Origin: Candidatus Omnitrophota bacterium
Lineage (GTDB): Bacteria > Omnitrophota > Omnitrophia > Omnitrophales > JACQQS01
Direction: 5' to 3'
Length of the DNA: 62,514 nt
Assembly: GCA_016206925.1 (NCBI GenBank)
Contig: JACQQS010000028.1
Location: 1-62,514, forward strand
Every line of letters begins with the position of its first letter. Positions within the stretch are counted from its first letter, which is position 1. The notes beneath the pieces were generated by a model, which had not been told where the DNA came from, made no database searches, and worked only from the letters and a program-made list of their open reading frames with translations. Shown here one piece after another: positions 2,897-55,793 of this stretch. The position numbers were made by a program, and so were the translations under genes.

Positions 2897-4213
2897 TTAG
2901 ACGCTGTCTTTTGCTCTCCGCTTCCTGCTTGTTACCTGTTTCTTGTTGCTTGCTACCGTCTCAAACACCCCTTCCACCGCACACGCAAACATCGCTTTTG
3001 AAAATTTCCCCCGCGGGTTCACCGAGATTTTCTCGTGAATGGCCCGCCGGCAAATCCGGAGCGGATCGAAATTCCCGCTATTCTCGCCGGGAACCGTCGA
3101 AAAAGCGAACTCGTAACCGGCACTGCGCACCGCCTCGATCATCCAATCTTCGATCTGCCCGCCGGGAAACGCAAAATGTTTAACGGCGCCGCCCAGTCTT
3201 TTATCAATGATTCTTTTGGATTCAACAATTTCTTCAAGCGCTTTCTCCCTGGAAACTTTTGTCAAAAGAACATGGTTCGCACCGTGAGATCCGATGGTTA
3301 CGCCCGAATCTGAAAGTTCCTTCGCTTCTTCCCAGGAAAGCGTCATCCGCACATCCTCGCCGTTATTGTCGTAGGCCGGGCATCCTGCCCGGCAGTCTCC
3401 GGGGCGGGACGCCGCTTGGCTAAGCGGCGGTCGGCCGCTTGGTCCGGCGGTGCCACGCGGTCGGCGCGGCGCCCCGGCTACGTTGGACACAATCGGGTGA
3501 CGTCTTGTTTCACCATTGAGCTGATTTTTCAAAATGGTTAGAATGTTTTTCTGCTCCGCATCCGTTACTCGGTTGCAAACCGCTTCCAATTCTACAAGCG
3601 CTGCGACTTTAGCAACTGGCGAGGCCATATCAAAAATTGCGCGTTGGGGCAGGCCGTCCGGTTCCTTCCAAGAAAGTTCAACATGCGGTTTATTCGATTG
3701 ATGAACCAGCCGCTCCAGCTCGTCCCACCAAAAAACTTTCTCTTTTCCAATAAGCCCGGTGCTCACAAATACCGCCGCCGGTATTTTGAATTTCTTGAGT
3801 ATTGGAAGCGCTTCCGTGTAATTGTCCAAATACCCATCATCAAACGTGACAGCCAAAGTCGTAGATTGCTTCGCCTCCTTCGGAGGCTCGCAATGACAGT
3901 CGCCCGTCATTGCGAGGAGGCTGCCTTTGGCAGCCGACGAAGCAACCCCACCACCACAAAGTGGTGGTGGGGCAATCTCAGCACAGGCAATAACGCTGTA
4001 ATTCCGCTTCACATACTCCATCTGTTTTTCAAACACCCGCGGTGAAACCGAAAGATGAAAGGGATCCGTCAAAGCGCCGCTGTTTACTTTGTGGTAACGA
4101 AGCACGATTAAACGGCTTCCCTCCGCGCGCCTCGTTTTCCACCAACGGAAAAAAGCAAGTGCGCCGCCATAGTAAACAATCACCGCCAAAATCCACCTAA
4201 CATACCGTTTCAT
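2897..4213 (-). CDS. polysaccharide deacetylase (NodB/CE4) with two in-frame palindromic insertions
   Basis: YHKV, TFDDGY, GSHGANH, FAFPGG motifs. Confidence 0.9.
   Translation of the reverse strand: MKRYVRWILAVIVYYGGALAFFRWWKTRRAEGSRLIVLRYHKVNSGALTDPFHLSVSPRVFEKQMEYVKRNYSVIACAEIAPPPLCGGGVASSAAKGSLLAMTGDCHCEPPKEAKQSTTLAVTFDDGYLDNYTEALPILKKFKIPAAVFVSTGLIGKEKVFWWDELERLVHQSNKPHVELSWKEPDGLPQRAIFDMASPVAKVAALVELEAVCNRVTDAEQKNILTILKNQLNGETRRHPIVSNVAGAPRRPRGTAGPSGRPPLSQAASRPGDCRAGCPAYDNNGEDVRMTLSWEEAKELSDSGVTIGSHGANHVLLTKVSREKALEEIVESKRIIDKRLGGAVKHFAFPGGQIEDWMIEAVRSAGYEFAFSTVPGENSGNFDPLRICRRAIHEKISVNPRGKFSKAMFACAVEGVFETVASNKKQVTSRKRRAKDSV
2921..2955. repeat. degenerate heptamer tandem array (CTTGTTA-like)
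   Basis: CTTCCTG CTTGTTA CCTGTTT CTTGTTG CTTGCTA; roughly inverse of the 2018-2059 array. Confidence 0.65.
3371..3481. repeat. GTAG-type REP pair carrying a nested 60-bp unit (3412-3471), in-frame in CDS
   Basis: GTAGGCCGGGCATCCTGCCCGGC...GGGGCGGGACG[60 bp]CCCCGGCTAC; 111 bp. Confidence 0.85.
3863..3979. repeat. GTCATTGCGAG/AAGCAATC-type palindromic element, in-frame in CDS
   Basis: AGATTGCTTCG..CTCGCAATGAC + GTCATTGCGAG..GACGAAGCAA + CCCCACCACCAC-AAA-GTGGTGGTGGGG hairpin; 117 bp. Confidence 0.85.
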
Positions 4214-4271
4214 AAACAGTTTTAACCTTTACAGGGTTGCATTTGATCCAAATTTCCAAATTTCCGGTCAT

Positions 4272-4308
4272 TTGACACACATACAAACCTTGTATATACT
4301 TCATACAA
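4272..4308 (+). promoter_or_regulatory. sigma70 promoter with RHH operator-like inverted repeat
   Basis: TTGACA-17-TATACT; ATACAA-acc-TTGTAT in the spacer; third ATACAA at 4303. Confidence 0.75.
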
Positions 4309-4328
4309 GACCGAAAGGAGAATTTCCA

Positions 4329-4577
4329 ATGCGAACTGTAACCGTTAACATTTCTTTTCCGCAACGTCTTTTGAAAGCTGTGGATCGGACGGCAAAAAAG
4401 GAAGACCGCACGCGCTCCGAGTTGCTACGCCAAGCATGCCGCATGTACCTAGAAAACAAGGACCGGCTTACGAATGCCATGAATACCCTACGGGCAGAAG
4501 CCCGCAAGGCGGGATATAAACCCGAAGATGTAGAATCTTGGATTGCTGAGGTTCGAAAGAGTCGAAGAGCTGCATGA
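4329..4577 (+). CDS. CopG/RHH antitoxin
   Basis: MRTVTVNISFPQRLLKAVDRTAKKEDRTRSELLRQA; AAGGAG RBS. Confidence 0.85.
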   Translation: MRTVTVNISFPQRLLKAVDRTAKKEDRTRSELLRQACRMYLENKDRLTNAMNTLRAEARKAGYKPEDVESWIAEVRKSRRAA

Positions 4578-4762
4578 CAGCTCCACACGAAATCACTAAC
4601 GTTATTACTCAAAATCCCGATGACGACAGGGTGCTCGAATGTGCTGTCACCGGAAAAGCGCACTTCATTATTTCCGGAGACAAACATCTGCTCAATCTCA
4701 AAGCATTCCGTGATATTCAAATTATTTCTCCGAAAGATTTTCTCCTCAAGCATTCGTTCTAA
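4574..4762 (+). pseudogene. PIN-domain toxin, C-terminal half only
   Basis: NPDDDRVLECAVTGKAHFIISGDKHLL present; N-terminal LDTNV strand absent. Confidence 0.75.
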
Positions 4763-4784
4763 GTAACCGTGCATAGGTTTTAGA

Positions 4785-4840
4785 GTCATTCCCGCCGCGC
4801 CGACCGCCGCTCGGCCAAGCGGTGCCGCTCGTTTAAGCCG
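4785..4840. repeat. variant of the 60-bp unit joined to a GTCATTCCCGC REP end
   Basis: reverse complement ends CGGTCGGCGCGGCGGGAATGAC, identical to 55749-55770. Confidence 0.75.
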
Positions 4841-4961
4841 AGTTTTTTGAGGTCGGTTTGCCGCTCTTCAGGAATACTGGGAACTATATCCAGAATTTTG
4901 TCACCCATATGTTCCTCAACAACTTATCGCTTCGTAAATTGGATATCAACGCTGCTCTGAA

Positions 4962-5270
4962 TTAATTTTCCGAATCGGTCAGGCGTGCGGAACTTAAAAG
5001 ATCTTCCAAGTCAAGATTAAGGTAAGCACCGCAGCTCTTAAGAAGGTCGAAAAATTCCCACGGATTTAGATTCAAACGCAGACACGCTGAGCTCATTGTG
5101 ATTTCTTTGGCGGCGTAGAGTTTTAAAACGGACTCCCGCTTCGCACCCTCGAGCCCGCGCCGTATCACCTCCCTAAGGAAAGCGGCTTTGTCCAGATGTT
5201 GCTCTTGGGCAAACCGATCTACTTCATGCAGCAATTTCTTGTCGACCCGGATATTAAGTGGTATAAGCAT
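4962..5270 (-). CDS. UPF0175-like antitoxin (RHH + HTH)
   Basis: LNIRVDKKLL...LYAAKEITMSSACLRLNLNPWEFFDLL. Confidence 0.75.
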   Translation of the reverse strand: MLIPLNIRVDKKLLHEVDRFAQEQHLDKAAFLREVIRRGLEGAKRESVLKLYAAKEITMSSACLRLNLNPWEFFDLLKSCGAYLNLDLEDLLSSARLTDSEN

Positions 5271-5273
5271 AAT

Positions 5274-5798
5274 TTACTTCCTCTCCCTTTCAGCAGCTGC
5301 TTGCAGCATAATCAAAGCATCTGCAATGATGTTCGGTACATATCTGCCGATGATACTCAGTTTCTCGATGGCTTGTTTTGCACGCTCGAACGAAATTTTA
5401 CCTAGCTTAAAAAGATCTACAGCCACAACAGGCGAAATAATAAAAGGCACCCTTAAATATCTAGCCGCTCGAACGGCATCCCCATCATCCGTTAACAAAA
5501 TACTTCCCGGTAACTCCATGCATAATTCAATGGCCTCTTTCTCGCCAGGACCAAGCTTATGTAAGTAATCAATCTTCTTAACGGATTGAACTTTTTTTAT
5601 CTCGATTACCTTGTCTTGGGCCCATTGTTGAATGGCAAGGGCGTCGGGAAAATGTCTCAATGAATAGTCGCTAACGCACTCCCGATAGACATGCTCAGGA
5701 ACAACAACCTTAAACGCATCGGTCAGAGGGCTCGCCAATCCGGCTTTTGACAGCAATATAAGCGAGCTCGCATCACAAACTATCATTTTTAACGCCAT
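5274..5798 (-). CDS. PIN-domain (DUF3368-like) toxin
   Basis: IVCDASSLI, VYRE, LGPGEKEAI, LLTDD. Confidence 0.8.
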   Translation of the reverse strand: MALKMIVCDASSLILLSKAGLASPLTDAFKVVVPEHVYRECVSDYSLRHFPDALAIQQWAQDKVIEIKKVQSVKKIDYLHKLGPGEKEAIELCMELPGSILLTDDGDAVRAARYLRVPFIISPVVAVDLFKLGKISFERAKQAIEKLSIIGRYVPNIIADALIMLQAAAERERK

Positions 5799-5845
5799 GC
5801 CAAAAACTTTCGGTTGTATAATAATGTATACATTGTTACACGCTA

Positions 5846-5874
5846 AGTATACCTGCCCACAACATTGAAATCAA
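5846..5874 (-). promoter_or_regulatory. sigma70 promoter of the PIN/UPF0175 pair
   Basis: minus strand TTGATT-17-TATACT; AATGTATACATT palindrome just downstream. Confidence 0.55.
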
Positions 5875-5953
5875 GATGGCCTTCGAGATACCGATGCCAA
5901 GCGCCATCAAGTCGTCATGGTTCTAATCGTAACCACATGCATTACATAGTGAT

Positions 5954-7492
5954 TCATGATTTTGGACCAGCTCCATCAAACCAACAGCCGTCCAGCTTGT
6001 ATCTGCGATCGAGAACCGGTCTTTGAATCGCACCGGCCGCGCCCGCAGGAATATTCTGCGGCACTCCCAAGCGCCTTTCTCTCTCATCGATAATCCTCAA
6101 GCGTACAATCATCGCAGCAAGAATCCAGAAGTAACTAAACACTTCCTGCGAATCCAAGCGCGATCCGAACATATTGTTCATTAAGAGCGCAAAAAGACCG
6201 CCGAGAAAACCCAGCGCGAGCGCTTTTGAGTACGGGTCATGCGTGGATTTATAAAGCGCGTATGTATTCCAAAACACCAAACCGATCAGCCAAAGAAAAA
6301 TAATAAGAGCGGGAATTCCCATCTCCGCGGCAATAATTAAATAAGTGTTGTGCGCATCGATGGGGCGCTCACCCGACCAATAATACTTAATCATGGGCTG
6401 GAAAAGATCATAGCCGACTCCAAAAAAGGGGTAATCCGCAACCATCTTCAGACCGCCCTTCCAAACTTCCACGCGGGATCGCGAACTGGTCTCAAGTGAA
6501 CCCTCGATGTCAGAGGTGGTTTCCACATACGAAACGGGTTGCTCCAGCGTCTGACCCATTCGATAGCGTATGCCCGCCGGAAGGAGAATCGGATTTAAAG
6601 CCGCAAGCCACGTAAAAAACAAAAGGAAAGCAAAATAAAGTTTACTTCTAAAAAAAGTGATGGCGTACATCCCTAACGCAAACGCCAGATAGCCCCCGCG
6701 GGAAAATGTCACCATAATGCCGCGAAAGCAAATCAAGAAAGGAATGAGAAGCAGCCAATATTTAAATTTTCTCATGTTCATCAAGAGAAATCCGAGGGGT
6801 AGAAACATGTAGTAGTTAAAGAAAGCCGCAAGCATATTCGGCTGATCGACGATTCCCCCTACCCTGGCTTTCTCCAAGCTGCTGACATTTCCAATTTCGA
6901 TGTAATCATAAATGGCCATCAGACCGACCAATGTCGTGACAAAAATAATGACGTTCACTATTTGTTTGATGGTCTGTTTATCTTTCACGGTATTCAAAAT
7001 CAGAAAGAAAAGAATAAACGGCGTAATCCAGCGTTTGTACTGAATGACACCGATCCACAAACGGCCGGATCCATAATACGAACCTCTGAGCACGGCGATA
7101 AAACCAATGAGTAAAAAGAGAATCAAGGGCGGATTGATAGAATTTTTTATCCAAATCGGTTCGTCCACCGCGTAGCGCCCCGTCATCCACACCAAAATCA
7201 CGAAAATCAAAAGAATGTTTGTGAGATTGAAAGCCGTTGCCAGACCTCCAAAATCACCGGCCAGCTCGCTTGAGAACGGTAAATAGGCAACCAACACATA
7301 AGTCACCATCTCAGGGTGGGAAATTCCCCGAAGAAACAAAACAATTCCGCCGGCCGCGATGCCGATGGCCATAATCCAGGTCGGAATGTAAACTTCTTTC
7401 GTAATGATGTAGCCCAGAGTTGTTGCGATAATAATCGAGAATATAAATGCTCCAGCGCCCTGTTTGGGCTGAGCTTCGGCCTGCGTGGTCAT
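5954..7492 (-). CDS. O-antigen ligase/Wzy-like polymerase
   Basis: multi-TM; PNMLA, TFSRGG, PFFGVG, AHNTYL..AEMG. Confidence 0.85.
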   Translation of the reverse strand: MTTQAEAQPKQGAGAFIFSIIIATTLGYIITKEVYIPTWIMAIGIAAGGIVLFLRGISHPEMVTYVLVAYLPFSSELAGDFGGLATAFNLTNILLIFVILVWMTGRYAVDEPIWIKNSINPPLILFLLIGFIAVLRGSYYGSGRLWIGVIQYKRWITPFILFFLILNTVKDKQTIKQIVNVIIFVTTLVGLMAIYDYIEIGNVSSLEKARVGGIVDQPNMLAAFFNYYMFLPLGFLLMNMRKFKYWLLLIPFLICFRGIMVTFSRGGYLAFALGMYAITFFRSKLYFAFLLFFTWLAALNPILLPAGIRYRMGQTLEQPVSYVETTSDIEGSLETSSRSRVEVWKGGLKMVADYPFFGVGYDLFQPMIKYYWSGERPIDAHNTYLIIAAEMGIPALIIFLWLIGLVFWNTYALYKSTHDPYSKALALGFLGGLFALLMNNMFGSRLDSQEVFSYFWILAAMIVRLRIIDERERRLGVPQNIPAGAAGAIQRPVLDRRYKLDGCWFDGAGPKS

Positions 7493-8718
7493 GCGCTCAC
7501 ACTTCTGCCCGCCAGTGAGGCAAATAAATTTTCATACTGACTTATAGTCTTACCCCAGGAATAGTTCTCAAGTACAAATTTTCGGCCGAGCACCCCCATA
7601 CCTTTTCTCAACAGCCGATTTTCCAGAACGCGCGTAAGCTCACTCATGAATTCGTCCTTACCGGATGCAATGGCAACTGCATCCGAAGGCACATGATCGA
7701 TTCCTTTCACAGCAAGCGGGGTGGCGATCACCGGTAATTCCATGGCCAAAGCTTCCAGAATCTTATTCTTGATTCCACTACCCATTCTCATTGGGCAGAC
7801 AAAGGCCAAAGCGCCTGCCAGATAAGGCCGGATATCCGAAACCTTTCCGGTCACCAGAATGTTTGGATCTTCGCCGAGCTCTAAGACTTCTTCGGCCGGA
7901 TCGGCTCCGGCTATTACGAATTTAATTTCCGGCATTTTTACTTTTAATAAGGGAAAAATAGATTTTGCAAAATACGCCGCGGCATCTTGATTCGGCCTGA
8001 AACTCATATGCCCCGTAAAAACAACATACGGCTGGCTTACCTTGAACGGCTCTACGATCGCAGGATTAAAATAATCCGTATCTACCCCGTTCGGAATCAC
8101 TCGAATCTTACCGTTCTGCCCCTCATACAATCCGGCATCGTCTCTCGCTACAAAAATAGTCGCGTTTGCTTTATCCGCCATATCTTTTTCGAACCGGGTC
8201 TCCCTCATTAACCGCCAGGCCAGCTTAAACCGCTTTTCCCAATTTCCCGCAAGCCTCATCTGCCGTTTTGTCTGTAAAATCATCGAATCCCCGATATCCT
8301 GAATCCAAGGAATAACACCGGAGAGAAACGCGCCGTACTGTGCCACTTCATTATCCAATGTAATCACCAGTTCAATGCGCCACTCCGCCACGATAGTTCG
8401 TAATGCTGATTTGATTCCATCAACTCTTTTCGGAAACTTTGACTCCAAATCAAACCAGGGCTTAAACCGAACGGCTGTTTTAAGCCTGTCCAAGAGAGCG
8501 GGGCAAGACAACTCATTCAACGCTTTGATCCCGGAAAAAGTTTTCCGAGCCCACTTTTCGATTTCTTTCGCCGCGTCTTCATCCGGGCTTCGGGAAGAAG
8601 CGGTCAGGAGATAAATCTTGTTGTCTTTCGCCAGCCTCCCATAAATATTTTTCAAGCGGACGGTCTTACCCGAAAATGGAAACGAAGGAGGCGCGCTATC
8701 GATTAATAGAATATTCAC
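7489..8718 (-). CDS. GT4 glycosyltransferase (PEP-CTERM-locus sugar transferase type)
   Basis: IPNGVD, FTGHMSFRPN, GSGIKNKILEALAM. Confidence 0.9.
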   Translation of the reverse strand: MNILLIDSAPPSFPFSGKTVRLKNIYGRLAKDNKIYLLTASSRSPDEDAAKEIEKWARKTFSGIKALNELSCPALLDRLKTAVRFKPWFDLESKFPKRVDGIKSALRTIVAEWRIELVITLDNEVAQYGAFLSGVIPWIQDIGDSMILQTKRQMRLAGNWEKRFKLAWRLMRETRFEKDMADKANATIFVARDDAGLYEGQNGKIRVIPNGVDTDYFNPAIVEPFKVSQPYVVFTGHMSFRPNQDAAAYFAKSIFPLLKVKMPEIKFVIAGADPAEEVLELGEDPNILVTGKVSDIRPYLAGALAFVCPMRMGSGIKNKILEALAMELPVIATPLAVKGIDHVPSDAVAIASGKDEFMSELTRVLENRLLRKGMGVLGRKFVLENYSWGKTISQYENLFASLAGRSVSA

Positions 8719-23134: not shown

Positions 23135-23163
23135 TAAAGTTCCTCTATTTGAAGCACCCTCAC

Positions 23164-23190
23164 GTAGGCGGGGCAAGATGCCCCGCCTAC
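23164..23190. repeat. GTAG-type REP hairpin
   Basis: GTAGGCGGGGCAAGATGCCCCGCCTAC. Confidence 0.85.
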
Positions 23191-26225: not shown

Positions 26226-26302
26226 GTCATTGCGTAAATCTCGTAGGCGGGGCTTCCAGCCCCGCGTCATCCCTGTTAGATCCCCGCTTGCGCGGGGATG
26301 AC
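26226..26302. repeat. cluster of REP-like palindromes (three types abutting)
   Basis: GTCATTGCG; GTAGGCGGGGCTTCCAGCCCCGC; GATCCCCGCTTGCGCGGGGATGAC. Confidence 0.8.
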
Positions 26303-26432: not shown

Positions 26433-26454
26433 GTAGGCGGGGCGCCCCGGCTAC
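26433..26454. repeat. GTAG-type REP (shortened)
   Basis: GTAGGCGGGGCGCCCCGGCTAC. Confidence 0.75.
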
Positions 26455-40311: not shown

Positions 40312-42217
40312 CTTTAGTAGGGCTGGAAAACGGCTTAATATAAAACATGGTCACCATACCGGCCACCATGACGATGGCCCCCAAATAAATGATGTTCGTG
40401 CCGGGCGCCTTAGCCACCTGAAAAATCGATATTTCCGGCGCGCCGGGCGGCACTTCAACAAAGCTGGATTGGAATATGCGGAAGCCTTTGTAATCCAGCG
40501 GATGGTTCATGTAAATTTTTTTCTCGATGGCCACGCCGGCGCTACGATCGTGGAGCAGAACGTCGCTTTCATAAGCAGACGGAATTCTTGTCCCCGGATA
40601 AAAGGTTCTCCTGAAATCGATCAGCTTAAGCGAAAACGGAACAGGCTCGGTGTGATAGCGGTAGACGACATGGGCCGTCACTAGGCCCGCCGATAGGGTT
40701 CTGTCTTCGCCGAACGAAAGCCACTCGGGACCGGTTGATATCTTTTCTCCAGTTGACGGATCCGGATAGAACAGTTCCAATTGAACAGCCGGTTGACTTT
40801 CGGTGTCATTGTCATTCCCGCGCCGCTCGTTCAAACGGCGCGGGGACGACAAAAATTCCATTTCATACTGCGCCTCGGCACGCGGAAAATATTCTTTTAC
40901 CCGGAACTGAAAGTCCATCCAGCCAGCTGCCTGCCATTCGCCCTGCCGGACTTCGCCCGAAACATGCCCGCCTTTTGCCGTCTCGCTTACAAAGCGCAAT
41001 TTTTCATCTGTACCCTGGACAAAAGTGAAATCGGCCTTGGGCCCGGCGTTGGCCGCCAGGCGAGAAGCATCAAGTTCGGCACGCAATTTACTCCATCCGC
41101 CGGAGCCGGAGCCGTGAAGCGTATCAAATTCGGGAAAAAGCGCGAAAGCGGTATGCTGTTCCACCCGCCCGTCTTTCGCTTTGACTTCAAAACGAACGGC
41201 TGGATTCGGCGCGGCACCGGGTTCGTTTATCAGTTCGTTGCCAACAACCCGCGCATTTTGAAAATAATCCACGATCCGGAGCGACGCATCCAGACCCGGT
41301 AAATCAACCGGATTGTTTTTATCCGCCGCTGCGGGAATACGAATCGGCGCTTCTCGGCCGGGTAAATGAATCACCAGGTAAGGAATGTCCTCCCGGGGCT
41401 CCTTCCGATCGGGAGTTTTTAAAAGCATTTTCTCTTCCGCATCGGAAAGGGCCATCAGCAGCCTGAATGTGGCCGGCCCCAGCGACCAAGTATTGCTGTG
41501 AGGATTTGACGCATCAAAATAAACAAGTGTTCCCTCCTCATGAAAGCCGGCCATTTCGCTTTTCATTTCAAACACAACCGCAGGGTTTCTTTCCGCCTTT
41601 CCGGAATCAACGACATTCAGTTCCTTGCCGGCCTCCTCCGCAAATTGCAAAAAAGTCAGATAAGACCCGCTGCTGCCCAATTTAAGAGGCTCACCGATTT
41701 TACTTTTCAATTTAAATTCATCGGCAGGAACCCTGTACGATCCCGCTCCGCTCAAATCCAGGCTAACGACACGATCGCCGAGCGTTATTTGATCGACGCC
41801 GTCTCCCTCCGTCAAATACATCTGGCCTTCAATCCCGGCATGCCTGTTGACGGCCGACCCAAGGCAGATGATCAGGAGGCCAAGATGCGTGATGATAAAA
41901 CCCGCATGCCGGCGCTCGAAAGGGTAGCGCAGGACTACCGCACAGAACACGTTTAACGCGAACAAAGTCAGAAAAAGATCGAACCACCCGTTTGTATAAA
42001 TGAACCGCTGGGCAAGTTCCGTAGATTCAAACGACTCGTAGAAAGTCGAAAAAATCAGGATAACCGCCAAAATGGCAATCAGAAATACCGCGAGGCGCGT
42101 GGAGCCGAAATAGCGGCAAGTCTTTAAGAATATATTTTCCTTCCTTCTCGCTTGAGTACCGGCTTTCACGCTTTTTCCTTTGATCAGCAATGGGAGTGTT
42201 TTACCTGACTGCAGCAA
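40295..42217 (-). CDS. cytochrome c biogenesis protein ResB/CcsB
   Basis: three N-terminal TM, ITHLG, AYESDV, MNHPLDYKG.RIFQSSF. Confidence 0.85.
   Translation of the reverse strand: MLQSGKTLPLLIKGKSVKAGTQARRKENIFLKTCRYFGSTRLAVFLIAILAVILIFSTFYESFESTELAQRFIYTNGWFDLFLTLFALNVFCAVVLRYPFERRHAGFIITHLGLLIICLGSAVNRHAGIEGQMYLTEGDGVDQITLGDRVVSLDLSGAGSYRVPADEFKLKSKIGEPLKLGSSGSYLTFLQFAEEAGKELNVVDSGKAERNPAVVFEMKSEMAGFHEEGTLVYFDASNPHSNTWSLGPATFRLLMALSDAEEKMLLKTPDRKEPREDIPYLVIHLPGREAPIRIPAAADKNNPVDLPGLDASLRIVDYFQNARVVGNELINEPGAAPNPAVRFEVKAKDGRVEQHTAFALFPEFDTLHGSGSGGWSKLRAELDASRLAANAGPKADFTFVQGTDEKLRFVSETAKGGHVSGEVRQGEWQAAGWMDFQFRVKEYFPRAEAQYEMEFLSSPRRLNERRGNDNDTESQPAVQLELFYPDPSTGEKISTGPEWLSFGEDRTLSAGLVTAHVVYRYHTEPVPFSLKLIDFRRTFYPGTRIPSAYESDVLLHDRSAGVAIEKKIYMNHPLDYKGFRIFQSSFVEVPPGAPEISIFQVAKAPGTNIIYLGAIVMVAGMVTMFYIKPFSSPTKGGTAV
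40811..40850. repeat. GTCATTCCCGCG-type REP hairpin in-frame in ResB
   Basis: GTCATTCCCGCG-CCGCTCGTTCAAACGG-CGCGGGGACGAC; encodes SSPRRLNERRGND. Confidence 0.7.
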
Positions 42218-47636: not shown

Positions 47637-47797
47637 TTCTGCTCCTTAACTCTTGCTTAAACCACCGTAGTTTTGATTCCTATTTTGTCGGATTGTAAGG
47701 TGCCATTAACAAATTGTAAATAACTTCGAATAAAGGATAGATGCATTCAAAAATAGTTTATGCTATCATTCGTGACGCTGTGCCTTAATCAAGGAGA

Positions 47798-48499: not shown

Positions 48500-48544
48500 A
48501 TTAATTCCAATCGTCGACAAATTGTCGATAGTTATTCCATTAAT

Positions 48545-50698
48545 TTATTCGTAGCGAAGGGATTCAATCGGGTCGAGCCGGCTAGCGCGGTAGGCGGGCC
48601 AGACGCCGAATCCAATACCCAGCAAGGCGGAAAAAAGGAAACCCAAAAAGTTGGATTGAACGGAAATCAGCACCGGCCAGTCCGCCGCAGCCGCAATCGC
48701 CCAGGACACCAGAATGCCGAGTATAACGCCGGAAATTCCGCCGACCCCGCTCAGCACCGTGGACTCCACCAGAAATTGCGAAAGCACATCCCGGTTCCGT
48801 GCACCCACCGCTTTTCGTATGCCGATTTCACGTGTACGTTCCGTGACGGAAACCAGCATAACATTCATAATTCCAATCCCTCCGACCAGAAGTGAAACAG
48901 CCGCCACCGCACCGAGCAGCGTGGAGAAAATCCGCGTGCTCTGAGACATGGCTTCCTGAATATCTGCCATATTGCGCACATAAAAAGCCTCCGCATTCTC
49001 ATCCGACGTCTTTATCCGGTGCCTTCTCTTCAGTAATTCCTTCAACGATTCCATGACATGATAAATATCATCGCTCGTGGCCGCTTCCACCTGAATCTGA
49101 TCGAGATACCGCGTGCCCTTTAGGCGGGAAAGGGCCGTGTAGAGCGGAACGAGCAAAACATCATCCCGATCCCGGAATGAACTGCCGCCTTTTTCCGCAA
49201 GCACGCCGAGCACCTGAAATTCGAGCCGGTCAATGCGGATGGTTTTTCCGACCGGATCCTCGCTGCCGAATAATTCACGGTAAACGGTCGGCCCAAGCAG
49301 TGCCACTCTTTCTCTTCTGAGATCTTCTTCCCTGGTAAACCGCCGTCCGATCGTCGGCTCCAAAGAAAGCATATCAATGTATTCCGTCGACACACCGGTG
49401 ACTTCGGTTTTCCAGTTCTTGCTCTTGTAAGTAATGCGGCTGTACTTACCGACATAGCCGGATACCGCACGGATTCCGGAAATTTTCTCTCGAATGGCGG
49501 CGAGATCGTCCATCGTGAACCTGGCCACCTCGCCAACCATCATTCGCACCGAACCCCGGACGCTTCCGGAGCCGGGCCTGACCGAAAGCAGGTTTGATCC
49601 CAGAGAAGAAAGTTCTTCGGCTATCTGCGCCTTCGCCCCCTCGCCGATGGAAAGCATCGAGATAAGGCAGGCCACGCCGATCATCACGCCCAGCATGGAG
49701 AGAAATGAACGCATGCGATGCGCCTTGAGCATAATCAGCGCCTGCCGAAAATGGTCGGCAATCTCGTTCCAGGTAAGACCGGCGATTTCGGTCATTGCGA
49801 GCCCCGTAAGGGGCAAAGCAGTCCGCGAAGCGTCGCGAGACTCCGAAGGAGTCGTGGCGATCTCCGTCTCAGAACGGAGACTGCTTCGGGCGCTCTGCGC
49901 CCTCGCAGCGACATCCTTGTCGGATTGCTTCGCCGAACCGACCGTTCGGTGCCGCTGGTCCAAGCGCCCGACCGGCGCTTGATCAAGCGGCGTCGCGCCT
50001 TCGGCGCTCCTCGCAATGACGGCGGACAAATTGTTTTTCTTATCTTCGACAATATGGCCGTCCTTCATGCGGATGATGCGGTCGGCTCTCCGGCTCACTT
50101 CCTCTTCATGCGTAACGATGATCAGGGTAAACCCGTTACGATGAAGCCGCTCAAATATCGAAAGAATTTCGTCGCGGGCGGATGAATCCAGATTACCCGT
50201 AGGCTCGTCCGCAAGAATGATCTTGGGCTTATTAACGAGCGAACGCGCGATAGCCACGCGCTGCTGCTGTCCGCCGGAAAGCTGGTTGGGAAAATGATGC
50301 CGGCGGTCCGACAGGCCGACGTCATCCAAAAGGCTGCGCGCGCGGTGAATGCCGCTCCGGCGGCCTGAATACATGAGCGGAAGAGCGACATTTTGCTCCG
50401 CCGTAGTTCGCGGAAGAAGGCTGAACTGCTGGAATACGAATCCGATCGCGCGGCTCCTGAGCGCCGTACGTTCGTCATCACTTAACGAGCTGATTTCCCT
50501 TCCGTCAAACAGATAGGTTCCCCCGCTCGGCCGGTCCAGAAGGCCCAGCAAATGAAGCAACGTAGATTTGCCCGACCCTGACGGGCCCGTTATGGCCGCA
50601 AACTCCCCCTGCCGGATTTCCAAATCGACGGACTTTAAAGCCTCAACTCGAACCAAGCCTAATCGATAGACTTTGGATATGCCTTTTAACTGGATCAC
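48545..50698 (-). CDS. macB: MacB-type ABC ATPase/permease with in-frame REP-encoded linker
   Basis: [36 protein letters not shown]. Confidence 0.93.
49791..50020. repeat. composite GTCATTGCGAG-type palindrome with nested 60-bp unit (49931-49990), in-frame in macB
   Basis: terminal GTCATTGCGAG / CTCGCAATGAC; internal hairpins. Confidence 0.85.
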
Positions 50699-51696
50699 GA
50701 ACCGCCGCGCCTGCGTCCGCCAAACGCGCTGAAACTGCGTTGGCCGGAACCTTTCTCGTTCTTCTTTTTCCGTAACGCCAGAACGGTTTCGCTCTCCTTA
50801 AGCCCGGAATTTACTTCAACGATGGAACCGGTGAGAAGCCCGATGTCGATTTCCTTCCAAACGGGTTGTCCCTTTTTCACTCCGGAGGCAACGCAGTTCG
50901 CGCCGGTGCGGAATCGGCCGGTCTCCGGACAGACCAACACAGCCTCCTGTGGAAGCGTCAAAACATCGTGCTTCTCCGCCGCGCGAATCGTAACCTGCGC
51001 CGTCATGCCGGACCGAAATATCGGATCCAAATCCTCTGGGAGCACGTCAACATGGTAAATATTCACATTTTGCTCAAGCACCGCTTCAAAAGCAATATGA
51101 TCTACCTTTCCCGAAAACGAGCGCTCCGGATAAGCGTCCAGAATGACGGCGGCTTCTTGCCCGATTTTAACGTAGCCGACATCCGTTTCATTCACGGAGG
51201 CATCTACAATCAGCCGGTCTGAAATGACCACGACCGCAACGCCATCGTCAACCGTTTGGCCCGGCTCCACAGCCCGCACAATGATCGTGCCGTCAATAGG
51301 AGCAATCAAAGGTGTGGGGCGATACGTTTCCTTCCAATATTCCATCGCCTCTCCCCCTTTTGCACGCGCGGCATCCAGCATCGCAGCTCTCTCGGTTGAA
51401 CTCAGTTCAGCCAGCAGATCCCCCTTTTTTACTTCATTGCCTTCCTTCACATAAATTTCCTCAACCCGCCCGGCGATCGGTGGCCTTACTTCAAGACGGT
51501 TCTGCGGCTTGATCTCGCCCGTAGCCGATATATTCAGGATAACCGACCCCTTCTCAACGCGGACTTTTCTCACAACCTCCCAGGTAAATTCACCCTCGGC
51601 CGATTTTTTGGAGCAGCTTCTTATCACGAAAAACACAACCAGTACGGCCAGCACAAAGCGCCAATATTTTTTGGCGTAATTAAGCACGGTAGGCAT
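50695..51696 (-). CDS. MacA-type periplasmic adaptor
   Basis: SATGEIKP, IAGRVEEIYVKEG, APIDGT, FRSGMTA. Confidence 0.9.
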   Translation of the reverse strand: MPTVLNYAKKYWRFVLAVLVVFFVIRSCSKKSAEGEFTWEVVRKVRVEKGSVILNISATGEIKPQNRLEVRPPIAGRVEEIYVKEGNEVKKGDLLAELSSTERAAMLDAARAKGGEAMEYWKETYRPTPLIAPIDGTIIVRAVEPGQTVDDGVAVVVISDRLIVDASVNETDVGYVKIGQEAAVILDAYPERSFSGKVDHIAFEAVLEQNVNIYHVDVLPEDLDPIFRSGMTAQVTIRAAEKHDVLTLPQEAVLVCPETGRFRTGANCVASGVKKGQPVWKEIDIGLLTGSIVEVNSGLKESETVLALRKKKNEKGSGQRSFSAFGGRRRGGS

Positions 51697-53032
51697 CGAA
51701 CGAAAGACCTTGACTGCGGAGCCAGTCCGCTTCCGCTAAAACGGCATCACGCAATGCGTTTAGCAGAGCAATGCGGCTGTTCACCAGCTCCTGTTCGATA
51801 TCATCCCAATCCTTAAATGAAACGAGGCCGTCCTGATATTGAATACTCGATATCTCGGCACGCTCGACCGAAGCACCGAGAAACTTTTTACGCACCTCGA
51901 CAAATTCAACGGCATTCAGGAATTCCGTCCACTTTTCTATCAGATCCGCATAAGCCGAATCGCGCACATCCTTAAGCGTGTAGAAAGCTTCGCGCTGGTC
52001 GGAGCGCGCCGAATAGAGACCGGCCAATTCCTCACCGCCGCTGAAGATAGGAAAGTTAATGCTGAAACCGGCATCCCAGGTGCGCGTGTTCATATCTGGA
52101 GTCCGGCCTGAATTGGCATAACTGGCGGAACCCGTAACCGTCGGCCAAAAATCGGATTGTTCTGCGATCACATTGGCACCCGCAGCGTCTTTTAGCTCTC
52201 TCCTTCTTAAAACGGACGGGATGATTTCGGCAAGCGCGGCAAAATCAGGCCGGCTTTCGGGTGCGGAGGAAATCATGATCTCAAGATCTCCGGAAACAGC
52301 CGGCTCCATTTCGTACCGGCCTCCCAGCTCGCGCGCCAGCGCATTTCGTTCAGTGATAATACTCCGCTCCGCTTCGCGCACATCGAACATCGCTTCGTTA
52401 TATATCGCTTCGGCCCGTTTCAATGATCCGCGGTGCTCCCGTCCGCCCTCGTAGCGAAGCCGTACGATTTCCTCATTCAACTTCCTGCGCTCGGCAATAA
52501 AATTCCGCAGCACAGCCAGTTCCTGGGCATGCAGCAATCGGACGAATGCCTGCCTTGTCTCTAGTGCAATTCGTGATTCTATATCGTCGTAATTGAATTT
52601 CTCGGCGCGGAAATTTCGCCTTGCCCTGAGCACCTCCGCCGTATTTTCAAATCCGGAAAACCATTCTTCGGAAACGGAGGTGGCAAACGAAAAGCTGTTC
52701 GTTGCTTTGGCGTCGTCCACCTGTCTCCTGGTTCGTTCAAATTCAGCGCTGGCGTCGGGAAGAAAACCCTCGAAAGATTGCATCCAGGCCGCCCGGGCTT
52801 GTTTGACCGCCTCTCTAGCCGCAAGAAGCTCCGGATGGTCTTTTTCCGAGAAGGCGGCGCATTCGGACCAATTGAGGATTGCGGGGAGCTTGCCTTCTTC
52901 CGTAAGAAGAGAGACCGGCTCAAGCCTGAGACAGCCGGTCAGCATAATAAAGGCAACGGATGATAAAAAACGTAGGCGCATTCGAGATGGGTTCAAAACT
53001 CCGGAAGGCATTTGCTCATCCTTAGTAATCAA
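51680..53032 (-). CDS. TolC-family outer membrane factor (lipobox LTGC)
   Basis: HPEL, FLP, RYEGG, FWP, NFPIFSGG. Confidence 0.88.
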   Translation of the reverse strand: MITKDEQMPSGVLNPSRMRLRFLSSVAFIMLTGCLRLEPVSLLTEEGKLPAILNWSECAAFSEKDHPELLAAREAVKQARAAWMQSFEGFLPDASAEFERTRRQVDDAKATNSFSFATSVSEEWFSGFENTAEVLRARRNFRAEKFNYDDIESRIALETRQAFVRLLHAQELAVLRNFIAERRKLNEEIVRLRYEGGREHRGSLKRAEAIYNEAMFDVREAERSIITERNALARELGGRYEMEPAVSGDLEIMISSAPESRPDFAALAEIIPSVLRRRELKDAAGANVIAEQSDFWPTVTGSASYANSGRTPDMNTRTWDAGFSINFPIFSGGEELAGLYSARSDQREAFYTLKDVRDSAYADLIEKWTEFLNAVEFVEVRKKFLGASVERAEISSIQYQDGLVSFKDWDDIEQELVNSRIALLNALRDAVLAEADWLRSQGLSFDAYRA

Positions 53033-53116
53033 AATTCCTTATCCTGAAAGCAATGTTGATGGCGGGGTATTTTAATACATTAGGGGTTAGAGGAGAACCT
53101 AAAATTTTATACGAAA

Positions 53117-53203
53117 GTCATTCCCGCGCAAGCGGGAATCTGTAGTAGACTGGATTCCCGCCCACGCAAGACCCGCTCTTTTCGAGGTGCCTGTGCGGGA
53201 CGA
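53117..53203. repeat. GTCATTCCCGCG-type REP pair
   Basis: GTCATTCCCGCGCAAGCGGGAATC...GGATTCCCGC. Confidence 0.8.
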
Positions 53204-53207
53204 GAAA

Positions 53208-54053
53208 ATGCCAAAACAATTGCAAAAAAAAGTCGCACTCATCACCGGCGGAACAAGCCGCATCGGCCAATCCATCGCCATGAAACTGGGCAGCGCGGGC
53301 GCACGTTTGGCATTAACCTATCATTCCTCACGCCAGCACGCGGAGGAGGCCGTCAAGGAAATTGAGTCGGCAGGCATTTCTGCAAAACTATATTCGTATG
53401 ATCTCGCCAAGCCCGGCAGCGCTTCCAAACTTATTGAGCAGGTCATCCGTGAATTTGGTTTGCTCGATATCCTCATCAATAACGCTTCGGTTTTTACGGA
53501 AACCCCGCTGGGCAATATCAACGAGACAGACTGGGATCAAATCCTCAATACGAACGCGCGCGGGCCTTTCTTTTTAATTCAAGCCGCTTCAGAAGCGCTG
53601 AAAAAAACCGGCGGCGCGATTGTCAATATCAGCGATCTCTACGGAAATCAACCACTTTTAAGGGACCGTATCCCGTACTGCGTTTCCAAGGCGGCTTTGA
53701 ATGCGATCACAAAAGGCCTCGCACTTGCGCTCGCGCCGCAAATACGCGTCAATGCGGTCGCGCCCGGCGCCATTACTTTTCCGGAGAATTACACCGATGA
53801 TAAAAAAGGCGGGCTTCTAAAAGAGATTCCGCTGGGCCGGCCGGGAAATGCAACCGATATCGCGGAAGCCGTAGCGTTTTTATTGATGGATGCACCCTAC
53901 GTAACGGGACAAATTCTCGCCGTGGACGGCGGCCGCTCGATGAAAAATCAGGAACGCGAAACTTTTTGGACGGCCCCCGAACAAACTTCTGCCCAATCAC
54001 CCAAGCGTCTAACCGGTTCTTCGGCAAATGCCTTTGATGCCAAATGTTCCTGA
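53208..54053 (+). CDS. pteridine reductase/FolM-like SDR
   Basis: TGGTSRIG, NNAS, YCVSK, LAPQIRVNAVAPG, VDGG; adjacent to folB-folK. Confidence 0.85.
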   Translation: MPKQLQKKVALITGGTSRIGQSIAMKLGSAGARLALTYHSSRQHAEEAVKEIESAGISAKLYSYDLAKPGSASKLIEQVIREFGLLDILINNASVFTETPLGNINETDWDQILNTNARGPFFLIQAASEALKKTGGAIVNISDLYGNQPLLRDRIPYCVSKAALNAITKGLALALAPQIRVNAVAPGAITFPENYTDDKKGGLLKEIPLGRPGNATDIAEAVAFLLMDAPYVTGQILAVDGGRSMKNQERETFWTAPEQTSAQSPKRLTGSSANAFDAKCS

Positions 54054-54868
54054 ATTGTTGATCCGGTTCCCGGCTCAATCAAATCTGGCCTAATCTCCGC
54101 AAGCGGTACCAAAATAAACGCCCTGTCAACAAGTGAAGACTCTTCCGAAGCGCTCCCGGTGTGCCAATGCTTGCCAAAAATCAAAATGTCGATATCGATA
54201 TTTCTCGAAGCAAACTTATCTTCCGAGCGGATACGGCCCAAGTGGTTTTCCAGATGCAACAACTGGTCTTTCAGTTCCGTTTCAGACAGCTCGGTCCGGA
54301 GCTCCATGATTAAATTCCAGTACTTCGGCTGATTTGCCGCACCGTAAGGCAGTGTTTCATAAATTTGAGAGACTTCGTTAACAAAAAAAGATTCTTGAAG
54401 CAGCCGGATGGCTTCGCCGATGTTTCTTTCCGGATCAATATTTGATCCGATGCTCAAATAGACGGTCGTTGCCGCATCCGGGAGATAGTCGGAAATTTCC
54501 CGGAAAACGGTAACGCTGACATTTTCGGCACCGCGAAGCGCTCCGGGCTTGCTCACGCGGACTTTAATATGTTTGACTCGAAACTTGTTTATGCAAAAGG
54601 AGGCAATGTTCTCGGCCAGCGTTTCAACCAGATAAAATCTGCTTTGCTCGACAAATGAAATGACCGATTTTGAGATCCTCTTGTAGTCAAGCGTGTCTTC
54701 GATACGATCGTTTTGAGAAGCTCGGCGGGCATCGCAGGGCAGTTCGAGATCGATTACAACTTTTTGACTCACGGCCCGTTCCCAGTCAAAAATGCCGACA
54801 ATGCAGCCGGCGGCAAGACCTTGAATAGCGATCAGATCGTTTCTTGGATGATCTCCGGATTCGTCCAC
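53948..54868 (-). CDS. folK: bifunctional dihydroneopterin aldolase / HPPK (FolB-FolK)
   Basis: VGIFDWER, DTLDY, LVETLAE, SKPGA; LSIGSN, RNIDIDIL, RAFILVPL. Confidence 0.92.
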   Translation of the reverse strand: MDESGDHPRNDLIAIQGLAAGCIVGIFDWERAVSQKVVIDLELPCDARRASQNDRIEDTLDYKRISKSVISFVEQSRFYLVETLAENIASFCINKFRVKHIKVRVSKPGALRGAENVSVTVFREISDYLPDAATTVYLSIGSNIDPERNIGEAIRLLQESFFVNEVSQIYETLPYGAANQPKYWNLIMELRTELSETELKDQLLHLENHLGRIRSEDKFASRNIDIDILIFGKHWHTGSASEESSLVDRAFILVPLAEIRPDLIEPGTGSTIQEHLASKAFAEEPVRRLGDWAEVCSGAVQKVSRS

Positions 54869-55416
54869 ACGTCCTCCTGGAGCGGCAGATAAACGGGCAT
54901 GGCTTTGGGCCCTTCCTTTTCAAGAATCTTTCTCGCCTCCTGGAAACCTTTAAGAAGGGCTTGCGCCGGAACATAGCGGCGGGTGTAAGGATCGAGGATT
55001 TGGGGATCAATGGGGCCCAGCGCGGACTTTTCGCTTAATCCAATCTCATCGCCGGAAAGGACGAGCAGCGTCGCGGCACTGTAAGCCGAATGCGGGACGA
55101 GGAAACGAACAGCCTTAAAATTGGAACGAAGAAGATTGACGATTCGTTCCGCGGCCTCGGCAGAACCGCCCGGGCTGTGAATGAAGACATCAATGGCATC
55201 GCTCGAAATGCCTTCGATCAAATCGGAGAAGCCCACGATATCGGCTTCATCCATACTTGCCAGCATGGCCGCGGGCGAAGGTTTTAAAAAACTTGAAGCG
55301 TAAACAATGAGCGGGCGTTCCGTATGTCCTTCGATTTTTCTAATCAGACCGATCCGCAATTGCTGCGCCTCTTTGGGATCTTTGAGGCCGTCAATGAGTT
55401 GCTGATACGTCGGCAT
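54832..55416 (-). CDS. SDH-family Clp-fold serine protease, probably C-terminally truncated
   Basis: IHSPGG, AYSAATLL, LGPIDPQ. Confidence 0.75.
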   Translation of the reverse strand: MPTYQQLIDGLKDPKEAQQLRIGLIRKIEGHTERPLIVYASSFLKPSPAAMLASMDEADIVGFSDLIEGISSDAIDVFIHSPGGSAEAAERIVNLLRSNFKAVRFLVPHSAYSAATLLVLSGDEIGLSEKSALGPIDPQILDPYTRRYVPAQALLKGFQEARKILEKEGPKAMPVYLPLQEDVWTNPEIIQETI

Positions 55417-55603
55417 TAAACTGAACTTCGGCAGAGTTGGAGGGTTCCAGGCGGAGGTCTTCAAAAGGCAGGATGCCCATATGCCTCAAAGCTTCGTAAT
55501 ATTCTTTCTCAGAGGTCTGGAAAAGTTCAAAAATGTCCTTCTCTTCCGGATGCTTTTTCCAGTACCGATCTGCGTACTCCAAAATGTCTTTCCCGTTCTT
55601 CAT
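55391..55603 (-). CDS. hypothetical 70-aa protein overlapping the SDH start
   Basis: ORF with protein-like composition, coupled to the next gene. Confidence 0.55.
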   Translation of the reverse strand: MKNGKDILEYADRYWKKHPEEKDIFELFQTSEKEYYEALRHMGILPFEDLRLEPSNSAEVQFNADVSATH

Positions 55604-55666
55604 GGCTGCACCGCCGCAAATTGTACTCGATTCTTCCTGTTGAGAAAAGCGCTAAAATTTCAAAAC

Positions 55667-55793
55667 GTAGCCGGTTGTTCAAGCGGCGGTCGGGCGCTCG
55701 GTCCGACGGCACCGCGCGGTCGGCGCGGCGAACGGTCGGTTCGGCGCACGGTCGGCGCGGCGGGAATGACGCGGGGCGAGACGCCCCGCCTAC
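55667..55793. repeat. GTAG REP with nested 60-bp unit (55671-55730) plus two extra 16-bp terminal copies
   Basis: GTAG[60 bp][AACGGTCGGTTCGGCG][CACGGTCGGCGCGGCG]GGAATGAC-GCGGGGCGAGACGCCCCGCCTAC. Confidence 0.85.

Follow-up and report, generated by a model that had tools for sequence, protein, structure and literature searches.

Several described classes of small repeat resemble a 60-nt unit that is present in three full copies in contig JACQQS010000028.1 of a Candidatus Omnitrophota bacterium, a stretch of 62,514 nt that was analysed in full (hereafter the window). Insertion sequences (ISs) of the IS200/IS605 family have hairpin ends that are bound by one protein, and they insert without duplication after a fixed tetra- or pentanucleotide. 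Miniature transposable elements with inverted repeats (MITEs) of the IS630 type duplicate a 2-bp TA target, IS1397 and ISKpn1 target repetitive extragenic palindromes (REPs), and the BOX elements of pneumococci are modular in build, with no loop targeting or 2-nt repeat that we know of. According to the accessible parts of the respective sources, REPs are palindromes of 20-40 bp defined by a GTAG or CGTC conserved at one end, have been found inside uvrB and uvrA, and lie nested in other palindromes in three species (PMC3733652); MITEs have terminal inverted repeats of 15-30 bp and a length of 70-300 bp (PMC3733652); palindrome-associated transposable elements (PATEs) are miniature derivatives of IS200/IS605-family elements (PMC6006769); and in-frame palindromic inserts are the hallmark of Rickettsia palindromic elements (RPEs; PMC10969869).

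Here we report that the 60-nt unit is a genuine miniature form of palindromic selfish DNA, with precise boundaries, recent activity and an unusual rule set. We regard it as probably a non-autonomous mobile element with a 58-nt core, which inserts precisely with repetition of a pyrimidine-purine (YR) step, prefers hairpin loops, and has its ends read by a protein acting in trans.

Unit boundaries and two-hairpin structure

The initial annotation of the window described three ungapped copies with 46-50 of 60 positions identical between pairs. Reading of the sequence confirmed both the positions (Table 1) and the counts, the three identities being 46, 50 and 49 of 60. When the whole window was searched with a covariance model and filters off, these copies were the sole strong matches (74.6-84.3 bits; E 8e-12 to 1e-13), and the next-ranked matches were reverse-strand shadows of the same three copies. 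In the host genome (G000; 2.01 Mb, 87 contigs, 49.5% G+C), a hidden Markov model of the three window copies gave ~40 matches at E < 1e-3. A genome-wide covariance-model search, which had been proposed together with the annotation, located 35 full-length copies; the model (R1) was built from these 35 copies, and their recovery by it is therefore by construction.

We tabulated lengths and flanks, as had also been proposed, for 214 near-full copies at 179 distinct sites, pooled from G000, four related genomes and 120 metagenome loci. The ends proved to be fixed, with exactly 60 nt held at 174 of the 179 sites. At 144 sites the last 2 nt of the unit were the same as the last 2 nt of the left flank, compared to 70 +/- 4.7 matches (maximum 88 in 5000) when flank-unit pairings were shuffled. 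Matched dinucleotides were CG (93), CA (23), TG (20), TA (6) and others (2), and 51 of the 75 units not ending in CG matched their own flank. Among 40 pairs of near-identical 58-nt cores (no more than 2 differences) with different flank ends, 28 followed their own flank while 11 shared one end. Based on these flank matches and on the pairs that follow their flank, we interpret the element as a core of 58 nt to which a duplicated target step of 2 nt is added. Thus, the repeated CG noted at the outset is a real repeat, but the core is 58 nt long and the dinucleotide, which can also be CA, TG or TA, follows the target. In the flank logo, CGGYR stands on the left and a weak CCG on the right, together the sequence of a unit-unit junction, and flank information is concentrated at positions -5 to -1.

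As judged from the alignment, the unit consists of a 39-nt imperfect hairpin (positions 1-39) and a 17-nt hairpin (42-58), both closed by CCG/CGG and each bearing a five-base loop of GGTCG or a near variant. A YR dinucleotide joins the hairpins at positions 40-41, and a second occupies positions 59-60. RNAalifold, run independently, returned the same two hairpins. Standard pairs accounted for 89% of modelled pair cells versus 31-43% with the 3' partners slid, and 51 cells were changed on both sides, a number reached by 0 of 500 shuffles. Copies from different families of the order likewise differed in a compensatory manner with the loops kept. In 90 copies from five genomes, the most conserved columns were the loops (positions 18-22 and 48-52, 72-97% each) and the CCG/CGG closures: the CCG ends were conserved in 85, 80 and 89 of 90 copies and position 58 was G in all 90, while flank position -3 was variable. 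Hairpins with a GGTCG loop and a stem of at least 5 bp numbered 55 in G000 versus 5-9 for control loops of similar composition, the reverse complement of the loop also giving 55, by necessity. Modelled pairs included 222 G-T and 97 A-C. Of 88 distinct units, RNA parameters gave the better fold to the top strand in 77 and DNA parameters in 66. Single-sequence folding gave z-scores of -0.85, -3.89 and -0.47 for the three window copies, weak values that arise because shuffles of such G+C-rich sequence fold too; the case for the structure is therefore carried by covariation. Taken together, the compensatory stem changes, the conserved loops and the excess of G-T over A-C suggest that the ends are recognised as folded single strands of one polarity.

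Copies 1 and 2 were said to follow GACG with a repeated CG and to restore a host repeat when removed, and their joined flanks bear this out. Removal of 60 nt at copy 1, whose insertion point lies 2 nt beyond the loop of the host repeat, leaves ...GGGACG/CCCCGGCTAC (the slash marks the junction), which equals the uninterrupted repeat at about 56169-56190; these joined flanks have 34 uninterrupted paralogues in G000. Removal of copy 2 leaves ...GCGACG/AAGCAATC, equal to the uninterrupted repeat at about 3925-3945. Its joined flanks gave 1 match elsewhere in G000, a weak one, and the same host type bears the unit at the same place in two relatives (G037 and G035) and in metagenome loci. For copy 3, the split GTAG and the two 16-bp tails described earlier are present, but 8 further nt, GGAATGAC, had been missed. 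The insert at this copy amounts to 100 nt in all with ends that are not clean, and the orphan GGAATGAC is comparable with the right flanks of nested copies in GTCATYCCCGC-type hosts. Because its inner stem is mismatched, copy 3 looks like a hybrid of two stem variants, and its long hairpin is absent from the minimum-energy fold. The 16-nt module occurs 1-4 times, and arrays of the same kind follow units in the relative G035. At window position 55744, contigs of three sequencing runs carry a 3-nt insertion (CAC) inside the short-hairpin array; the module array is therefore either population-variable or mis-assembled.

Two partial copies had also been proposed, near 4785-4840 and 40823-40840. 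Both are real fragments by eye, but neither is significant by model score (Table 1). The first represents a loop-to-loop deletion in which the stretch between two GGTCGG loops is gone, and adjoins GGAATGAC (4785-4792); the second sits in the loop of a GTCATTCCCGCG...CGCGGGG hairpin. A separate GTAG-type REP family, often arranged as inverted doublets and used by the unit as a target, occurs in the window at 3370-3393, 23163-23186, 26242-26265, 26433-26454 and 56148-56190.

Table 1. Positions of unit copies, fragments and interrupted host repeats in the window.
Feature	Positions	Strand	Details
Unit copy 1	3412-3471	+	74.6 bits; 58-nt core 3412-3469; long hairpin 3412-3450; short hairpin about 3453-3469
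Copy 1 terminal CG	3470-3471	+	repeats CG at 3410-3411
Copy 1 host repeat, left half (CCGGGGCGGGACG)	3399-3411	+	hairpin-plus-CTAC REP, GTAG type
Copy 1 host repeat, right half (CCCCGGCTAC)	3472-3481	+	compare uninterrupted copy 56169-56190
Unit copy 2	49931-49990	-	84.3 bits, top-scoring window copy; ends in CG, repeating CG of left flank ...GCGACG
Copy 2 host repeat, left part	49991-50020	-	GTCATTGCGAGG...GACG type with inner GCGCC/GGCGC hairpin; uninterrupted example 3905-3945
Copy 2 host repeat, right part (AAGCAATC)	49923-49930	-	
Unit copy 3	55671-55730	+	76.5 bits; preceded by CGTAG; inner stem of long hairpin mismatched (GCGGC against GGCGC)
Two extra 16-nt short-hairpin modules	55731-55746 and 55747-55762	+	after copy 3
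Orphan GGAATGAC	55763-55770	+	right half of GTCATYCCCGC-type host hairpin, carried with copy 3
REP hairpin plus CTAC (GCGGGGCGAGACGCCCCGCCTAC)	55771-55793	+	GTAG partner at 55667-55670, left of copy 3 insert
Deleted unit	4793-4822	-	by eye, positions 1-23 fused to 54-60; 14.4 bits, E 0.8
Unit fragment	40823-40838	-	by eye, positions 1-16 (16 nt); model E 4.9, not significant alone

Movement and target choice

Removal of 60 nt regained an uninterrupted paralogous repeat for 17-18 of the 35 copies in G000, with matches of up to 100% over 28-34 nt across the junction. In UvrB (contig C75) the unit forms an exact 20-aa insert between conserved blocks, which was absent in 6 of 6 aligned orthologues (68-71% identity, other genera of the order). 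The initial annotation suggested a search for empty alleles, and two were found in near-identical contigs. Metagenome locus L369 is without the unit that is present in L335 and in contig C49 of relative G029, with flank identities of 99.7% over 2081 nt and 99.9% over 1667 nt. A single GTG remains where the unit is missing, and the insertion point is the last base (3' edge) of the loop in GGGCCGA-CCAACGTG-TCGGCCC. L292 and G029:C29 carry a unit that locus L295 likewise lacks, and here flank identity is 99.7% over 5616 nt and 99.6% over 1226 nt. Both empty alleles hold one copy of the 2-nt repeat. Copy number is polymorphic as well, with two tandem copies in L353 versus one in G029:C68. The proposal of a discrete miniature element is thus supported by the fixed 60-nt length, and the two empty alleles and one copy-number polymorphism show that it has moved recently. 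At orthologous intergenic sites in four same-genus genomes (~70-77% identical), the whole repeat cluster was absent and no clean empty site was seen. Four DNA sequencing runs of one study contain the window region, and their contigs break inside repeats; among the joints listed for those runs none skipped 60 nt at either unit, the listed joints linking different repeat copies. No RNA run holding the window region was present among the runs listed.

Another palindromic repeat, or another unit, hosts about half of the G000 copies, which are placed at its loop or immediately 3' of it. The hosts were of four types: a GTCATYCCCGC-loop-GCGGGRAT hairpin family, in which units of opposite orientation occupy two adjacent CG steps; GTAG-type REPs of two kinds; the GTCATTGCGAGG...AAGCAATC repeat; and other units, entered after GGGCG of the long hairpin or after the CACCG that precedes the short hairpin. 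Simple patterns found about 77, 11, 38 and 21 uninterrupted hosts, and roughly one host in ten is therefore occupied. Hosts make up a very small share of the genome, and the unit lands in them far more often than this share predicts. Joined flanks folded at <= -8 kcal/mol at 32% of 123 sites versus 8% of 1230 random 40-mers (123 of 154 sites, those with unit-like flanks being left out). Of the 72 sites folding at <= -6, 21 have the insertion point inside the nearest loop, 38 on its 3' side and 13 on its 5' side; some of these 13 are misassigned, since a second hairpin ends just upstream. Some 15 of the 35 G000 copies are in unique sequence, UvrB among them; the joined flanks of non-repeat sites fold as well, and both empty alleles are non-repeat hairpins. 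The annotation held that the unit targets hairpin repeats. It does land in them, but its target is a YR step at or just 3' of a hairpin loop rather than REPs as such, and includes loops in other units and in unique coding sequence (UvrB and a gene resembling REP-associated tyrosine transposases, or RAYTs).

Two further host palindromes were seen in metagenome loci (L313, L336, L300, L355, L316 and L387). In one, GGACACCCT...AGGGTGTCCG followed by CAGCAGGACGCCTGC, the unit sits at one fixed point in six loci; in the other, GCCGCGGATG/GCGGC, it sits at the 3' edge of the loop in five loci.

Candidate enzymes and competing explanations

The preferred reading is that of a trans-mobilised element. 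Insertion is precise, with the 2-nt YR step of the target repeated on both sides of the 58-nt core, so that every event adds exactly 60 nt and keeps the reading frame. There is a strong statistical preference for YR steps inside G+C-rich hairpin loops or within a few bases on their 3' side, which accounts for the nesting in REPs, in other palindromic repeats, in the unit's own copies and in hairpin-forming stretches of genes. Since the flank consensus CGG-YR/CCG equals the unit-unit junction, tandem and nested arrays are built as well. The ends, folded as single strands of one polarity, would be recognised by a structure-specific protein supplied in trans. By analogy, the nearest known model for recognition of hairpin ends is a Y1 HUH (RAYT/IS200-like) enzyme.

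We profiled five enzyme families in G000 and 40 relatives (41 genomes), the five unit-rich genomes being incomplete (64-86%; 72-86% for G029, G035 and G011). Y1_Tnp domains occurred in 30 of the 41 genomes: every one of the five unit-rich genomes had them, but so did 20 of the 28 without units, and in the loci read none had ends that match those of the unit. GIY-YIG was ubiquitous (40 of 41). Resolvase (22 of 41) was not found in three of the five unit-rich genomes (G029, G035 and G011), while IS110 (9 of 41) was not found in four (G000, G029, G035 and G011), nor was reverse transcriptase (11 of 41) in four of the five. None of the families tracked copy number. On the window's own contig neither Y1/RAYT nor GIY-YIG gave a match, in agreement with the annotation, and any enzyme must therefore act in trans. 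The annotation further suggested a search for an HUH/GIY-YIG gene flanked by the unit. Nothing linked the unit to a RAYT or GIY-YIG enzyme: no Y1 gene examined was flanked by a unit, and family presence did not follow copy number. When 938 open reading frames (ORFs) within 3 kb of units in 80 metagenome loci were clustered, the sole recurrent mobile-DNA family was a RAYT-like protein at 4 loci; one of these occurrences is itself where the unit has inserted, and two represent a single locus in its filled and empty states. Among ORFs beside long-only or short-only partial copies (contigs C49, C24, C87, C72 and C74), nothing looked transposase-like by eye. The mobilising enzyme was not found among the families tested.

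Three genes met in these searches are described here in their own right. A small GIY-YIG gene at C67:9690-10040 is bracketed by a 15-nt inverted repeat (CCCATCACCTGCTTG / CAAGCAGGTGATGGG) and has the look of a small cassette, with a unit ~55 nt upstream of the gene's start; the other three GIY-YIG genes in G000 do not adjoin a unit. The Y1_Tnp match of G000 is a 450-aa ORF (C83:8463-9815; L037:577-1929, - strand) with N-R-L-E-L at the HUH position by eye, an N-terminus that is a translated GTCATTCCCGC-type repeat, and a long C-terminal extension. The RAYT-like Y1 protein, whose H-x-H looks intact, occurs in two forms, one of 199 aa with the unit (L335:3326-3922) and one of 179 aa without it (L369:1285-1821), and the same gene carries the unit at G029:C49:9781-10380. 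The element has therefore invaded a transposase-like gene.

Several observations weigh against the preferred reading. The 2-bp duplication does not fit the Y1 HUH model, as HUH single-strand transposition (IS200/IS605) does not produce one. Y1 genes are present in 20 of 28 unit-free versus 9 of 13 unit-bearing genomes; the sole Y1 match of G000 is weak (28 bits), is by eye without the HUH histidines, and has no unit nearby; and 0 of 11 Y1 loci from unit-rich and unit-free genomes were flanked by a unit or by GGTCG-loop hairpins. DNA folding of the three window copies gave no top-strand preference, with 2 of 3 bottom strands slightly better. Some flanks match the 3' end of the unit over 5-11 nt, and window copy 3 brings 8 nt of foreign flank with it. 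Unit subfamily tracks host class (identity 0.933 within versus 0.831 between; 0 of 2000 label shuffles), and some nested copies may therefore have been carried along as their host spread. From the empty alleles, insertion and precise excision are indistinguishable. Finally, the site counts for folding, loop side and 2-nt repeat are not independent events, since copies are related and host families recur.

As a minority possibility, the unit may be the substrate of an undescribed insertion enzyme that would read the two hairpin ends by their shared loop, integrate at a loop-exposed YR step and duplicate that step. We know of no HUH, DDE, serine or tyrosine system in which hairpin ends that lack inverted repeats occur together with a 2-bp duplication and with targets defined by structure.

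Replication copy-choice would require no dedicated enzyme: a strand stalled at a hairpin would switch by microhomology to a unit elsewhere, copy it and switch back, leaving an insert that looks precise between short repeats. We consider this unlikely. The flanking repeat does vary in length: of 91 sites, 32 have 2 nt, 23 have 3 nt and 15 have 4-19 nt, with one additional 40-nt tandem case, and the target in the second empty allele resembles the last 11 nt of the unit at 10 of 11 positions. Tandem units, the 16-nt module arrays, the deletion derivative at 4793-4822, the foreign flank of copy 3 and the lack of any tested enzyme family that tracks the element are likewise in line with template switching. 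However, length and ends are fixed at nearly all sites, most repeats are just 2-3 nt, and the element occurs in patchy bursts while sister genomes with similar hairpin repeats have none. Moreover, five-base loops that are conserved and stems that co-vary across families point to recognition of shape, not to mere polymerase stalling.

Site-specific recombination through a shared 2-bp core, with CGG-YR-CCG as the abutted ends and an enzyme of the IS110/bridge, serine or tyrosine type, strikes us as quite unlikely. The crossover dinucleotide of serine and IS110-type recombinases is 2 nt, as is the repeat observed here. The identity of the flank logo with the unit-unit junction and the insertions beside and inside other units also speak for such a core. 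IS110-family elements target REPs, ISPpu9 having inserted into them, according to the accessible part of PMC8450116. Set against this are the IS110 and resolvase domains that were not found in four and three, respectively, of the unit-rich genomes, and the many targets that share just the dinucleotide with the junction. In addition, the end dinucleotides of near-identical cores follow the target, which fits duplication better than a fixed core, and a double-stranded circle of 58-60 bp would be mechanically implausible.

Hitch-hiking, in which the unit entered each host family once or twice and the composite was spread by host machinery, would render REP targeting largely apparent. The link between subfamily and host class keeps hitch-hiking, or subfamily-specific target choice, alive, and identical insertion points recur within a host family. 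Yet one subfamily occupies both compensatory variants of a host stem (ATTCCC...GGGAAT and ATCCCC...GGGGAT) and sits at both CG steps of that host in opposite orientations, with an identity of 0.92 between these two contexts. Given also the copies in unique sequence, including UvrB, the two empty alleles in non-repeat hairpins and the folding of joined flanks at non-repeat sites, we view hitch-hiking as very unlikely.

A functional structured motif under selection (small RNA, terminator/attenuator or protein-binding site) would account for the compensatory changes, the conserved loops and G-U pairs that favour one strand most clearly with RNA parameters, but is scarcely credible for copies without clear orientation relative to ORFs (21 same versus 14 opposite for all 35; 8 versus 7 for 15 internal copies), placed inside conserved proteins where orthologues have nothing, present or absent in near-identical contigs, and without an Rfam match at gathering threshold in the whole window (0 matches).

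Host genes, distribution and place among mobile repeats

In G000, 15 of the 35 copies are inside ORFs of 200 aa or more, with 30 codons or more to either end. Copy 1 is in frame within a polysaccharide deacetylase ORF (2897-4213, - strand, 438 aa) whose Pfam domain is matched in two stretches, and copy 2 is in frame within a MacB-type ABC transporter ORF (48545-50698, - strand, 717 aa), in the linker between ATPase and permease; preservation of frame in two genes by the 60-bp length, as first proposed, is thus upheld. Further Pfam-confirmed host genes are UvrB, a PilM-PilN fusion, a TPR-STN protein of a pilus cluster and a TPR/BamD-like protein. Five copies are in very long ORFs in which Pfam matched nothing around the insert, two of them in an ORF of 13,398 aa and one each in ORFs of 8,750, 3,583 and 2,352 aa, while a copy upstream of a ribosome recycling factor domain is probably outside the true gene. 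Very long ORFs fit Candidatus Omnitrophota, as far as the accessible part of bioRxiv 10.1101/2023.11.21.568195 goes. Three of the giant ORFs are uninterrupted (C55:4888-45084, 13,398 aa; C33:61597-87849, 8,750 aa; C17:33315-44066, at least 3,583 aa), carry 1-2 in-frame units each, and are almost without Pfam match in the parts scanned. A second in-frame repeat in the deacetylase-like ORF, at 3905-3945, is of the GTCATTGCGAGG...AAGCAACC type and lies ~500 nt from the cluster of REP plus unit; at least three kinds of palindromic insert are therefore present in one gene.

The unit was present in 12 of 40 genomes of the same order, with 34 copies in G029, 33 in G035, 25 in G016, 11 in G011 and 1-5 in the others, and in 0 of 12 genomes of one family of the order. 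In an even draw of 150 genomes of the phylum with stricter filters, 6 had the unit, all in families of that order, compared to 0 of 48 genomes in a large family and 0 of 81 in further families. The distribution is patchy and burst-like. The first genome-wide pattern was too loose, most named matches being single chance matches in G+C-rich taxa, and the only named records that matched it repeatedly were Candidatus Omnitrophota metagenome-assembled genomes. One record of the alphaproteobacterial Candidatus Tokpelaia (L222) has two loose-pattern matches 430 nt apart, perhaps by chance or from a different repeat. No copy was found in viral contigs by pattern search or in plasmid and phage records by blastn. 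Literature on Omnitrophota palindromic repeats and on nested miniature REP hairpins yielded no description of the unit, the supplementary REP lists of PMC3733652 lying outside the comparison, and the Omnitrophota genome papers searched contained 0 occurrences of palindrom-, hairpin or MITE.

The unit resembles REPs and REPINs with their RAYTs (PMC2817692, PMC3116915 and PMC3733652) as a short G+C-rich palindromic repeat in tens of copies, with compensatory stem variants, non-autonomous and sometimes intragenic; the hairpin ends are presumably read as single strands in both. It differs from REPs in that its ends are CCG...CGG plus YR, with no conserved GTAG/CGTC column in 90 copies, and in that it consists of two unequal hairpins that share a loop and come with a 2-nt direct repeat. 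Unlike in a REPtron, no RAYT gene is flanked by the unit (11 Y1 loci), and the unit at G029:C49 lies inside the RAYT-like ORF rather than beside it. Unlike a REPIN, the unit has as its long hairpin one imperfect palindrome of 39 nt that lacks REP tags, and the second hairpin is in tandem rather than inverted. The GTAG REPs of the genome itself are targets of the unit, not relatives. Likeness to IS200/IS605 elements and PATEs is found in the covariation-supported hairpin at each end, the strand specificity and a target set mainly by bases 5' of the insertion point (positions -5 to -1 in the unit), and single-stranded targets would explain the loop preference. In contrast to these elements, the unit repeats a dinucleotide that is variable and follows the target, its cleavage points would abut the feet of the hairpins, and no TnpA is linked to it.

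Other likenesses are matters of behaviour. RPEs are in-frame palindromic selfish inserts in many apparently functional genes (accessible parts of PMC10969869 and PMC3733652), but are about 100-150 bp long, and occur in a different phylum, with neither a 2-nt repeat nor loop targeting reported for them; they were compared by behaviour, not sequence. Classical MITEs (Correia/NEMIS and RUP; PMC10969869, in its accessible part) are likewise miniature, non-autonomous and polymorphic for presence and absence, and their target-site duplication has a counterpart in the 2 nt repeated at most unit sites; the unit, however, is 58 nt long, its ends share just CCG...CGG (3 bp), and its stems co-vary rather than keep their sequence. 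The ISs that target REPs (IS1397, ISKpn1 and ISPpu9) also prefer hairpins of other repeats, but are 1-1.5 kb long with their own transposase, whereas the unit encodes nothing and is smaller than many of its targets' clusters. BOX elements share a variable number of one short module, as does the unit with its 16-nt module, but are unrelated in sequence and host. Taken together, the unit behaves like REPs/REPINs, RPEs and MITEs yet fails the defining features tested, namely the tags, the RAYT link, the long inverted repeats and the no-duplication rule.

Movement of most REP-like repeats is inferred from copy number alone. Here, allelic pairs and a conserved gene show directly where exactly the unit begins and ends, which dinucleotide is duplicated and what kind of site is targeted, and the resulting rules (58-nt core, 2-nt repeat, sites in or 3' of loops) are sharp enough for candidate enzymes to be tested with oligonucleotides. 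Many copies lie at contig ends, and part of the assembly fragmentation in this group is therefore explained. Because each event adds whole codons, selfish DNA can live inside essential and giant genes, and it does so here in a streamlined, uncultured lineage, that of a groundwater bacterium. The mismatch with every known mechanism makes the mobilising enzyme worth finding; if the unit were indeed the substrate of an undescribed insertion enzyme, it would be among the smallest defined transposition substrates and would offer a natural system for structure-guided insertion.

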